The notes: a model not told the origin generated them from the letters alone. Shown: positions 36,495 through 41,024, counted from the first letter of the stretch. The stretch: DNA of 64,000 nucleotides from Candidatus Bathyarchaeia archaeon (GCA_049513715.1 JBEKVV010000004.1:103633-167632), one strand, 5' to 3'. Numbers and translations: made by a program.

Positions 36495-36911
36495 CTACGC
36501 CATGTTCTCGCGAAGGATCCCTGCGACTTCGGTCGGAAGCAGAGTAGCCTTCCAGTTCAGGTCGACTGCGATGCATTTCAAGTAGCCTTCAGCGGCCAAT
36601 TCGTTCGTTTCCTTTTTGTTTAGTTGAAACTCGTATGTGACGGTCTTATCGGTGATTTCCTTGACCTTCATTACGACTTCAATGAGGTCATCGTACTTGC
36701 AGGCTACCATGTATACACAGTGTGCTTCAACCCTTGGTAGCATTATTCCGTATTTCTCGCGAATTTTGGCGTGAGTTGCACCCAGTGAGCGGTAGAACTC
36801 TTGCTCGCAGGCCTCGAAGTACCTGAAGAAGTTGGTATAGTGCATCACTCCCGCTACATCTGTGTCAACCCAACGAACACGAAACGCGTATTTGAAACTC
36901 ATCGCGGTCAA
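36495..36911 (-). CDS. Acyl-CoA thioesterase (4HBT/YbgC hotdog fold)
   Basis: RVRWVDTDVAGVMHYTNFFRYFE motif. Confidence 0.8.
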   Translation of the reverse strand: MTAMSFKYAFRVRWVDTDVAGVMHYTNFFRYFEACEQEFYRSLGATHAKIREKYGIMLPRVEAHCVYMVACKYDDLIEVVMKVKEITDKTVTYEFQLNKKETNELAAEGYLKCIAVDLNWKATLLPTEVAGILRENMA

Positions 36912-36992
36912 CTATCCCATTGTCCGGCTGAAAGTACTCCATAGATTTAACGAAGCCGTATTGCAAATGCGAAAAGGCTGCGGGATTCTCTG

Positions 36993-37003
36993 AAAGCTTA
37001 TAG
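36993..37003 (+). promoter_or_regulatory. TATA-like box upstream of tRNA-Tyr
   Basis: aaagcttatag lies about 30 nt upstream of tRNA position 1 (37031). Confidence 0.3.
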
Positions 37004-37030
37004 GGCACGCGCCAGAGGCTTTGGTTTTGT

Positions 37031-37205
37031 CCCGCGGTAGCTCAGCCTGGTAGAGCTTCCGAGTCGCTCTAACTAGGAGTGACGGAGACGCTGTAGGTGT
37101 GCGCCCAAGGCGCGGCCATGTCAGCCTACTAGGCTAACAACCGAAACCGGACTGTCGCTGGTTCAAAGCAGGTGTTACCCTGTGAAAATCCGGCCCGCGG
37201 GACCA
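37031..37205 (+). tRNA. tRNA-Tyr(GUA) with three BHB introns (30/31, 37/38, 59/60)
   Basis: C1-G72 acceptor CCCGCGG/CCGCGGG-A-CCA. D-arm GCUC-AGCCUGGUA-GAGC. Exon 1 ends UCCG (37058-37061). Exon 2 is G-CUGUAG (37090-37096). A38-CCGGA-CUGUC follows. T-arm GCUGG-UUCAAA[37168-37188]U-CCGGC. As I recall it, the 3' half closely resembles the M. jannaschii tRNA-Tyr. Confidence 0.85.
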
Positions 37206-38036
37206 TTATTTTGATGGTCGTGGGATCGGGGCTCCATTCTCCTTCAAAAGCAGAAGCCGTTCTTGAAGAGTTGTATGTGGTGGACAGGTACCAAGGGCTT
37301 TCCATACTAGGAATTTCGTATTCTTCGACAGATTGGCGAATCCCACTCTCATCATCCAGTAATGTAGCTGCTTACGACCCTTAATCCATATCAAGTGAAG
37401 TGGTACTCGACGCATCTGCTTGCTTTGGTATACACTACTATAGAAACGAAAACCCAGGTTCTTGAGCAAGCGAGTGGTGCCACTTGCGAGCGAGGGACTG
37501 CATGTTGAGAAGTTCAAAATGGGATCAGAGTATTCGGATCTTGCGTTCTTGCCAAATGAGAGTGAGCCGTCCGTGTCAAAGAGACCTCTCAAACAAGCTG
37601 AGTAGAACGATTTGTCATTGGAGTCCAGGAGAACGTCGGGTATACGGGCTCTGTACTTGGGCCCAACTGGCAATCCAAGAATCTTGGATTTGAAATAGAA
37701 TACGGCCATGGAGCCGTACATCAGGTTCAGTTCTGACTTTTCAGGGCGCTCGTAAGTGCTACCTCGAAGATTGTAGAGCCGGGAAACAAGCGTCGAAACA
37801 TGCGAAAGGAGGTAATCGCGGTCTTCTCTGTTATGCCCTGTATAGATCCATCGATACTCTGTTCCTCCACGTTTCGGCCTGCAGAACTTCAGTTGGCCGT
37901 CACCCAAATGAATCCCGATTTCCTCCGCAAGCTCTATCGACATTTCTTTGGGGATCGTAACCTGTCTTCGGTCATCATTCCAACTGCGTGGCAGTGTCGA
38001 AGGAATCGGAGGCCTCATCCTTGCATATCGCTCCAA
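37206..38036 (-). mobile_element. Free-standing LAGLIDADG homing endonuclease gene (double-motif)
   Basis: Motifs LAEEIGIHLGDGQL and CLRGLFDTDGSLSF. 276 aa with a TTG start at 38036 (or 270 aa from the ATG at 38018). The stop codon (37206-37208) directly abuts the tRNA-Tyr CCA on the opposite strand. Confidence 0.85.
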
Positions 38037-38130
38037 GAGTGTGAGTAATTGCGACTACTAATGCGAGAGAGCTAGGTGAAACGAATCTGGAATCGTACTA
38101 GTCCTACCGTGCAGTATTCAATGAAGGACA

Positions 38131-38278
38131 GCTGTAGTCCTGTACCTTGATGGTATGGGGAGTTCAGCTTACTAGGCGTACAACGTCTGAAACCGGAGTG
38201 TCGCTGGAGAACCGTTCAATGGTTCGGCGAATTCAAAATGGAGTGCATAACTCTATGAAACTCCGGCCCGCGGGACCA
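38131..38278 (+). pseudogene. Partial second copy of tRNA-Tyr (positions 31-76) with introns at 37/38, 53/54 and 59/60
   Basis: G-CUGUAG (38131-38137)...A-CCGGA-GUGUC-GCUGG[38208-38231]UUCAAA[38238-38261]U-CCGGC-CCGCGGG-A-CCA. No acceptor 5' strand or D-arm lies upstream. Confidence 0.7.
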
Positions 38279-38346
38279 TAACCGAGCTGTAAACGAAACC
38301 GTGTTCAATGACTCTTTCACCCTGAGAGCGGGTTCGTTTCCTGATT

Positions 38347-38823
38347 CTACGTGGTCGGTTTGGATACCTTGTAGAGAAACAGCTTGCGCTCAAGACCACC
38401 ACTGCTTCCTATTGCGACTTTTTCAGGTGTGAAGCCTGGGAGCTCATAGTCAAGAGAAACGATTCTGGCGCCCTCTTTGAGTTCCTGTTTCAGTTTGGGT
38501 GCTAGCTTCGAGTTCACGCTATCTGAGAGGTAGATGATGACGGCGTCGGCAGGGGAAACGTCGACGTCCATGAAGTCTGCTTGGATTACTTGTGCTTCGA
38601 TGCCGGTGGATTTTACGCGTTCCTGAATTCGGGAAACTCGTTCGGGGTCGATCTCGATTCCAACAACCTTCGCCCCGAATTTTCGTGCAGCTTCGATTAG
38701 AATGCGTCCGTCACCGGCTCCCAAGTCGTAGATTGTCTCCCCGCGTCGAATTTGGGCGAGCGAGAGCATCTGGTGCACTATGGATTTTGGTGTTGGAATG
38801 TATGCTACGTCTAAGTCTACCAC
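38347..38823 (-). CDS. Class I SAM-dependent methyltransferase
   Basis: IYDLGAGDGRILIEAA motif I. 158 aa. Confidence 0.75.
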   Translation of the reverse strand: MVDLDVAYIPTPKSIVHQMLSLAQIRRGETIYDLGAGDGRILIEAARKFGAKVVGIEIDPERVSRIQERVKSTGIEAQVIQADFMDVDVSPADAVIIYLSDSVNSKLAPKLKQELKEGARIVSLDYELPGFTPEKVAIGSSGGLERKLFLYKVSKPTT

Positions 38824-40918: not shown

Positions 40919-41024
40919 GCCCTGGTCGTTCAGTGGTCTAGGATGACGGCCTGTCACGTCGTCGACGCGGGTTCGAATCCCGCCCAAAGGAGCGGAAAGA
41001 ATCTTCTCCTGGCGAGGGGCGCCA
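40919..41024 (+). tRNA. tRNA-Asp(GUC) with a 30-nt intron in the 3' strand of the acceptor stem (68/69)
   Basis: GCCCUGG-UC-GUUC...GGAU-G-ACGGC-CUGUCAC-GUCGU-CGAC-GCGGG-UUCGAAU-CCCGC-CCA[40987-41016]GGGC-G-CCA. BHB: CGCC/GGCG helix, bulges CAA and AGG, AGGAG/CUCCU hairpin. Confidence 0.8.

Follow-up and report, generated by a model that had tools for sequence, protein, structure and literature searches.

The 64,000-nucleotide window analysed here (Candidatus Bathyarchaeia archaeon, GCA_049513715.1 JBEKVV010000004.1:103633-167632) contains the only complete tRNA-Tyr gene of its genome, followed directly by a free-standing LAGLIDADG homing-endonuclease gene and then by a second, partial tRNA-Tyr copy. 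The locus is best read as an endonuclease cassette lodged in the tRNA-Tyr gene, with a layout like that of the fungal mitochondrial mobile open reading frames (mORFs), through which alleles would exchange their sets of bulge-helix-bulge (BHB) introns; a probability of about 0.8 is given to this reading, which was drawn from sequence comparison. An endonuclease gene lies between the two tRNA copies, in relatives the site is free of the insert, and the intron variants of each copy occur in complete, sole-copy genes elsewhere, which together indicate that the copies are alleles of different ancestry joined by a mobile cassette. The question behind the locus is how the many non-canonical introns of archaeal tRNA genes are gained and lost.

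Three adjoining parts occupy positions 36900-38500 of the window: the full tRNA-Tyr gene, the endonuclease gene in antisense to it, and the tRNA-Tyr piece. The first part, copy A, is a complete tRNA-Tyr(GUA) gene with three introns (37031-37205, plus strand) and exons at 37031-37061, 37090-37096, 37146-37167 and 37189-37205. It is interrupted at tRNA positions 30/31 (28 nt, 37062-37089), 37/38 (49 nt, 37097-37145, beginning GUGUGCGCC) and 59/60 (21 nt, 37168-37188, GCAGG...CCUGUGAAAA), and the exon parts of its T-arm lie at 37157-37167 and 37189-37194. The endonuclease gene follows on the minus strand (37206-38036), its stop codon directly adjoining the CCA of copy A, and between its start and copy B lies a spacer (38037-38130) which presumably holds the endonuclease promoter. 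No further copy of this spacer was found in a search of the whole genome, and its final 8 nt (GAAGGACA) show a weak likeness to the tail of a 30/31 intron. Copy B (38131-38278, plus strand) comprises tRNA positions 31-76 and CCA without the 5' part, in exon pieces at 38131-38137, 38192-38207, 38232-38237 and 38262-38278. Its introns are at 37/38 (54 nt, 38138-38191, beginning UCCUGUACC), 53/54 (24 nt, 38208-38231) and 59/60 (24 nt, 38238-38261, AUGGAG...CUCUAUGAAAC). The exon segment of positions 38-53 is therefore present twice, as ACCGGACUGUCGCUGG in copy A (37146-37161) and as ACCGGAGUGUCGCUGG in copy B (38192-38207), and the two bracket the insert.

The 5' exon of tRNA-Tyr occurs once in the 2.79-Mb genome, so copy A is the sole complete tRNA-Tyr gene and copy B alone cannot yield a tRNA. 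Both copies were parsed manually and by script, and neither was detected by ARAGORN or by Rfam at its gathering threshold; the one tRNA gene of the window found by these two programs was tRNA-Asp(GUC) at 40919-40991. Standard tRNA finders are blind to this tRNA-Tyr gene, and such loci therefore stay unannotated.

The insert-free site was found in three relatives. In G017, G011 and G001 (genomes are given G numbers and other loci or contigs L numbers, G000 being the present genome) a homologue of 37029-37161, with 84-94% identity, is joined directly to a homologue of about 38164 onward, which is evidence that the locus in the window is an insertion. Past 38164 the match continues into the methyltransferase gene in G017 and G001; in G011 the methyltransferase gene matches separately, further downstream. 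Compared with alleles that carry all four of the tRNA-Tyr introns, the present genome has 1046 extra bp between the two copies of exon segment 38-53.

The endonuclease cassette was detected in two of 23 genomes of the genus, G000 included. The other, G004, is a Candidatus Bathyarchaeota metagenome-assembled genome with the same three-part locus, and was the only match when genome contigs were searched with the endonuclease as a single protein. Identity between these two genomes is 63.5% in the thioesterase gene upstream and 70-79% in the other syntenic flanks. Within the locus the tRNA 5' part with its two introns is 100% identical (113/113), the copy A T-arm 97.8%, the endonuclease gene 96.7%, the spacer 93.4% and the 37/38 part of copy B 93.5%. 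Because the cassette is 93-100% identical and the flanks only 63-79%, the comparison points to recent lateral spread of the cassette. The T-arm of copy B is 87.5% identical, with changes mostly in hairpin loops, as resident DNA situated to the right of a conversion tract would be expected to show. Homology between G000 and G004 stops exactly at the CCA of copy B, beyond which G004 has 4.3 kb of different DNA. This tract (L004:2580-3760) contains a long minus-strand open reading frame (ORF) and may be another insertion at a tRNA 3' end; a comparable neighbour in contig L047 gives weak HTH_AsnC/HTH_24 matches.

Further examples come from metagenomes. Two soil contigs of the Joint Genome Institute (JGI; L045 and L046), in which the endonuclease is 59% identical, have the same layout as G000, down to the intron types of copies A and B as defined below, and contig L047 holds a truncated endonuclease gene beside a full tRNA-Tyr gene and a decayed remnant. 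The present genome is metagenome-assembled with 8.8% estimated contamination, and an assembly error that merged the alleles of two strains could in principle have produced two differing copies. Such an artefact can be given almost no weight, as the three-part layout recurs in the independent assemblies of G004 and the two JGI samples and an intact endonuclease ORF lies between the copies.

The endonuclease has 276 amino acids (aa) if read from a TTG start and 270 aa if the ATG at 38018 is used, and its gene is single-copy in the genome. It matches Pfam LAGLIDADG_3 (2.9e-06, 27.9 bits against a cut-off of 22.5), and no NCBIfam model was found for it. It carries the motifs LAEEIGIHLGDG and LRGLFDTDGS. 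Across 48 homologues, the aspartates of the motifs IGIHLGDG and LRGLFDTDGS (numbered from the ATG) show no change at D148 and D150 and almost none at D40. Sequence profiles run against the PDB returned only marginal matches to intein endonucleases, so a comparison of folds was needed. The AlphaFold2 model (predicted local distance difference test 94.7, predicted template modelling (TM) score 0.92) shows two predicted alpha-beta-beta-alpha-beta-beta-alpha halves arranged pseudo-symmetrically. In Foldseek it matched I-DmoI with a TM score of 0.76 on the target and an E-value of about 1e-9, as well as the TliVMA intein endonuclease, PI-PfuI and I-Tsp061I. The gene product is thus predicted from its modelled fold to be a monomeric, two-motif LAGLIDADG homing endonuclease.

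An insert set between directly repeated tRNA 3' parts is also the classic signature of elements that integrate into tRNA genes (PMC3293823). The locus might accordingly be the relic of such an element, brought in by a tyrosine integrase or one of the SSV/pNOB8 type, with the 3' part of copy A and copy B as attL and attR and the endonuclease as cargo or a latecomer. This is improbable, as the 1046-bp insert has a single ORF that matches a known family, the LAGLIDADG gene, and no integrase, and this one-gene unit recurs in G004 and in the soil contigs. The repeats are also long, diverged and different in their introns, with no short identical core, and homologues of the endonuclease adjoin tRNA genes across the family, as described below.

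The introns of both copies were examined against the BHB rule, by which a 4-bp helix stands between two 3-nt bulges and each strand is cut after the second base of its bulge. The 30/31 intron of copy A has the helix CUUC/GGAG with all four pairs, bulges CGA and ACG, and an 8-bp hairpin. The initial annotation had described one 21-nt T-loop intron at 59/60 in copy A and 24-nt introns at 53/54 and 59/60 in copy B, each within a perfect BHB, and both the boundaries and the motifs are present in the sequence. At 59/60 copy A has UUCA/UGAA (4/4 pairs), bulges AAG and AAU and the hairpin CAGG-UGUUAC-CCUG. In copy B the 53/54 intron has CGCU/GGCG (4/4), bulges GGA and AAU and the hairpin GAACC(GU)-UCA-(AU)GGUUC, and the 59/60 intron UUCA/UGAA (4/4), bulges AAA and ACU and the hairpin UGGAGU-GCAUA-ACUCUA. 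Predicted excision gives GCUGG-UUCAAAU-CCGGC from both copies, as the initial annotation had stated and the script parse agrees, and this is standard cloverleaf sequence. Folding with RNAfold, which had been proposed as a check, recovered the intron hairpins and the CGCU/GGCG helix but missed the AU-rich UUCA/UGAA helices. The suggestion that the 53/54 hairpin mimics a T-arm did not hold up; its GUUCAAU loop is found only in this genome and the resemblance is a coincidence.

These structures are shared well beyond the window. The 53/54 intron is carried by 16 alleles and a 59/60 intron by 25, at the same positions, and in every one of them all four central pairs are formed. The hairpin stems covary (GAACC/GGUUC, GAAUC/GAUUC, GAGCC/GGCUC and GAGUCU/AGACUC; UAGAG/CUCUA and UAGGG/CCCUA), and the loops are variable. 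Constant helices, two-sided stem changes and free loops together argue that the BHB structures are under selection and not due to chance.

At 37/38 the motif is relaxed in both copies, with the helix CUGU/ACCG (3/4) in copy A and CUGU/UCUG (2/4) in copy B. Other registers tried for the copy B type of intron, with splicing at 35/36 or 36/37 or with the alternative helices GUAG/CUGC and UGUA/UACA, gave no valid mature anticodon loop. Both 37/38 introns also contain a hairpin, UCAGCC-UACUA-GGCU, followed by AACAAC (37120-37135 and 38164-38179). This hairpin is kept in both types of the intron and in several families of the order (L014-L043), is much better conserved than the remainder of the intron, and has a possible guide-RNA or processing role.

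Where the intron variants of copies A and B come from can be judged from the other tRNA-Tyr genes of the genus. One tRNA-Tyr 5' exon is present in each of the 22 genomes sampled, and the intron sets differ between them. Two variants of the 37/38 intron were distinguished, G (beginning GUGUGCGCC) and T (beginning UCCUGUACC, in genes which have no 30/31 intron), together with three states of the T-arm: a, with one 59/60 intron and a CAGG hairpin; b, in which a 53/54 intron is joined by a 59/60 intron bearing a UAGAG hairpin; and none, with no T-arm intron. Complete genes of the combination G-b, the four-intron alleles, were found in 11 genomes of the genus and in G023 and G029, G-a in G006 and G010, T-a in G002, G003, G005, G008 and G009, G-none in G012, G014 and G019, and T-b in the metagenome contig L047. 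The 30/31 intron is present in 20 of 25 parsed full genes. At the present locus copy A is G-a, as is copy A of G004, and copy B is T-b, which is also the arrangement on either side of the antisense endonuclease in L045 and L046. The ACCG variant of the 37/38 helix in copy A of G000 recurs only in copy A of G004 and in G006 and G010, whose alleles are free of the endonuclease. As compared here, the tRNA-Tyr alleles of this genus of Bathyarchaeota combine intron sets as mosaics.

These comparisons also bear on another history, favoured by the short distance of 1 kb between copies with different introns and by the inability of copy B alone to make a tRNA. The 3' half of the gene might have been duplicated locally in tandem, introns then being gained or lost in place and copy B decaying unevenly. 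The intron variants each have close counterparts among complete genes elsewhere and are hence older than the locus; the site is insert-free in relatives and the cassette is far younger than the divergence of its hosts. Local duplication is therefore considered very unlikely. The initial annotation had taken the two copies as direct evidence of intron gain or loss at the DNA level, and this stands in so far as different alleles of one segment are present and introns turn over as DNA. In-place change after a local duplication is not borne out, given the endonuclease between the copies and the insert-free relatives. Its count of two of four pairs in the 37/38 helix of copy B was correct, but the uneven decay read from it was not, since the same weakness is normal for the T type: a 2/4 helix is present in the sole tRNA-Tyr gene of G002, G003, G005, G008 and G009, and in G003 and G009 it is the identical CUGU/UCUG. 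Copy B is a fragment through its missing positions 1-30 and not through eroding BHBs. A search for other copies of the introns, proposed as a sign of transposition, yielded only chance 12-14-mers in the 2.79-Mb genome, and thus neither a family of introns nor a trace of transposition.

The intact structure of all three BHB-type introns of copy B raises a further possibility, that it serves as a functional 3' half, joined to exon 1-30 either through a giant BHB intron containing the antisense endonuclease or by trans-splicing as in split tRNAs. CUUC at positions 25-28 pairs perfectly with GAAG at 38124-38127, as such joining would need, but this requires a 4-nt bulge, and the canonical register with a 3-nt bulge gives two of four pairs (CUUC against AGGA). 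An oligo-T run (TTATTTT) at the end of copy A should stop transcription, and the mature product would equal that of copy A except at position 44, so that nothing would be gained. In G013 and L047 the pieces corresponding to copy B have decayed, and bases have been lost from a copy B of tRNA-His. A function for copy B thus seems highly doubtful.

One pair of genomes appears to record the passage of a cassette that was later lost. The flanks of the tRNA-Tyr gene are 88% identical between G013 and G014 on both sides. In G014 the T-arm is intron-free and the shared flank follows directly. In G013 both T-arm introns are present, and a decayed T-type remnant of a copy B lies 40-112 nt past the tRNA-Tyr CCA (L020, reverse strand). 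Its contents are the tails of two introns, one at 37/38 of the T type and one at 59/60 of the b type, together with a second 3' end, after which homology to G014 resumes. No endonuclease gene is left at the G013 tRNA-Tyr locus. We infer that a G014-like state passed to that of G013 by one cassette insertion and an internal deletion, which is simpler than three precise deletions in the reverse direction. At other endonuclease-free loci a motif scan found no second tRNA pieces, G013 being the only case, and relaxed tblastn searches beside endonuclease-free tRNA-Tyr genes gave no credible endonuclease remnants.

The association with tRNA genes extends across the endonuclease family. In G013 (L005), G015 (L012), G024 (L008) and G023 (L006) an endonuclease gene of about 30% identity is placed, in antisense, where tRNA-His(GUG) has its 3' end. 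In the first three a partial 3' copy of tRNA-His with different intron content lies downstream; in G023 no such copy was found, though the endonuclease gene abuts tRNA-His. The functional tRNA-His of G013 has lost the 59/60 intron. Its displaced counterpart agrees with the alleles of G016, G017 and G020, which have no endonuclease, so that at this locus the downstream copy is clearly native and the upstream 3' part foreign. Just 5' of the anticodon loop the endonuclease-linked functional tRNA-His genes of G013 and G015 have GAUACAAGG, and endonuclease-free alleles have GGUACAAGG, a difference which may be an immunity change.

In other clades the endonuclease gene lies beside a tRNA with the acceptor stem GCUCCGG (G001 and G021) or between duplicated tRNA 5' ends (G023). 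Four distant homologues were sampled from 95 homologue clusters and all four abut a tRNA gene: a tRNA-His and a tRNA-Arg called by ARAGORN, a third that is probably tRNA-Asn by its anticodon and has extra 3'-end fragments, and a fourth that is untyped. By our own estimate, with tRNA genes spaced roughly 40-60 kb apart, a gene would lie within a few hundred bases of one by chance in about 1% of cases. In L071 (2417-2595) one tRNA 3'-end fragment (reverse complement of ACGCCCCCGAGCA) stands in three copies between the LAGLIDADG gene and the tRNA, which resembles tRNA-Asn with a T-loop intron, and these copies look like repeated scars. In L072 (2500-2574) and L073 (2590-2663), both AT-rich contigs, the called ORF of 360-388 aa reads on the same strand through a complete tRNA (His and Arg), and the long C-terminal extensions of these distant homologues may be annotation read-through.

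Under the favoured reading of a mobile endonuclease cassette in the tRNA-Tyr gene, the enzyme would cut tRNA-Tyr alleles that lack the endonuclease gene, and repair of the break would copy the cassette into them. Copies A and B would act as portable homology arms, making homing independent of the neighbouring genes, and copy A would keep the essential tRNA working. The cassette's own copies would evade cutting through their differing introns or target sequence. Later recombination between the repeated tRNA segments would delete the endonuclease and leave G-b or G-a mosaics, and the intron sets at 30/31, 37/38, 53/54 and 59/60 would thus be swapped, gained or lost as DNA. Copy B starts near the anticodon arm in the Tyr and His cassettes alike, which hints that the cut site is near this arm, and that the 30/31 intron and the type of the 37/38 intron may decide susceptibility.

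Two histories of the junctions fit equally well. The T-arm of copy B is like that of the relatives' four-intron alleles and its 37/38 intron is unlike theirs; the 37/38 intron of copy A is like theirs. In the first history a resident four-intron G-b allele would have recombined within exon segment 38-53 with a donor element consisting of an a-type T-arm, the endonuclease and a T-type 37/38 intron. In the second a resident T-b allele would have received the insertion near 30/31, on the pattern of mORFs.

Several points weigh against the cassette reading. Under the first history, a recognition site with its centre in exon segment 38-53 of the four-intron allele would also be present in copy B and leave self-immunity unexplained. 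The endonuclease-free T-b allele that the second history needs was not seen in 22 genomes of the genus, and the T-b combination is known as a complete gene only in the one metagenome contig, where it lies beside a truncated endonuclease gene. Between G000 and G004 the endonuclease gene has a synonymous divergence (dS) of 0.06 and a ratio of nonsynonymous to synonymous divergence (dN/dS) of 0.43, and this ratio leaves room for an enzyme drifting to inactivity. Ordinary homologous recombination, without help from an endonuclease, could also have shuffled the alleles.

In this one genus the replacement of tRNA segments with their introns appears coupled physically to a selfish endonuclease gene. 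Each stage that would be expected is represented, from insert-free sites and fresh cassettes to a scar beside newly present T-arm introns and the mosaics, and together they offer a testable DNA-level mechanism for the horizontal spread and reshuffling of tRNA introns. The locus also supports the older idea that introns shield tRNA genes from DNA-targeting elements. It is tempting to go further and see free-standing LAGLIDADG cassettes as a general vehicle that moves BHB introns in and out of archaeal tRNA genes, the introns acting as immunity determinants, though this wider claim is a tentative one which we put at somewhat below an even chance. Introns near the cut site (the 30/31 intron, the type of the 37/38 intron and those of the T-arm) would then travel with the endonuclease into new genomes and persist as mosaic alleles once the endonuclease is lost between the tRNA repeats. 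If true, introns would have a concrete way of arriving, a matter still described as unresolved in a recent preprint about the intron-rich tRNA genes of Asgard archaea.

The archaeal LAGLIDADG enzymes I-DmoI and I-Tsp061I are encoded within BHB introns of rRNA genes. They share with the present system a monomeric two-motif fold, which is predicted here, an archaeal host and an association with genes that have BHB introns. Their genes lie inside the intron, in the sense direction, and are excised with it, whereas the endonuclease gene of the window lies outside the introns, in antisense, and is accompanied by duplication of a gene segment.

The closest parallel in layout is with the fungal mitochondrial mORFs that carry a duplicated gene 3' end, in atp6 of Allomyces macrogynus and in atp6, atp9, cox2 and nad3 of Glomus (PMC3630166). 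There, as here, the 5' part of the gene is followed by a replacement 3' part, a LAGLIDADG ORF and, about 1 kb downstream, the displaced 3' part. In both cases the two 3' parts differ and each is closer to those of other genomes, lateral transfer is inferred, and the host gene remains usable. The mORFs are found in mitochondrial protein genes and displace the native 3' part, whereas the present host is a tRNA gene on an archaeal chromosome, of which either copy may be the native one. In addition, the endonuclease of the window is antisense with no in-frame fusion, and its 3' parts differ in their sets of BHB introns.

SegB of phage T4 is likewise a free-standing endonuclease encoded beside tRNA genes, a GIY-YIG enzyme within a tRNA cluster, with a site that includes the T-psi-C stem-loop motif (PMC2330249). 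In relatives without SegB it cuts tRNA gene DNA, and it carries neighbouring tRNA sequence along, an activity proven for SegB and predicted here. The two differ in family, GIY-YIG as against LAGLIDADG, and in host, and the phage system is without partial tRNA duplication or introns.

For tRNA-Thr of Caldiarchaeum subterraneum, intron gain and the scattering of fragments were proposed to have come about through a mobile element together with homologous recombination (PMC3293823). As in the window, an insert, of 1.8 kb in that case, is flanked by a tRNA gene and by a piece from a second allele that differs in its introns. The Caldiarchaeum insert has a putative recombinase, a likeness to pNOB8-type plasmids and a 5' fragment, whereas the present one has the endonuclease alone, and the pattern described here is repeated within a protein family and for several tRNA species.

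Intron transposition among the tRNA genes of Thermoproteales was put forward by Fujishima et al. 2010, as outlined in a later preprint (bioRxiv 10.64898/2026.10.13.758758). The model likewise sets out to explain the gain of BHB introns at non-canonical positions at the DNA level, but it predicts near-identical introns across the tRNA genes of one genome, and none were found in the present one. The units that would move at the present locus are whole intron-bearing gene parts, swapped between alleles of the same tRNA. In full-text searches, with incomplete coverage of the literature, no description was found of free-standing LAGLIDADG genes coupled to partial duplications of archaeal tRNA genes. 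Set beside these systems, what appears to be new is a cassette that juxtaposes and would exchange sets of BHB introns, together with genus-wide mosaics, an apparently recent transfer between species and a scar with two T-arm introns.

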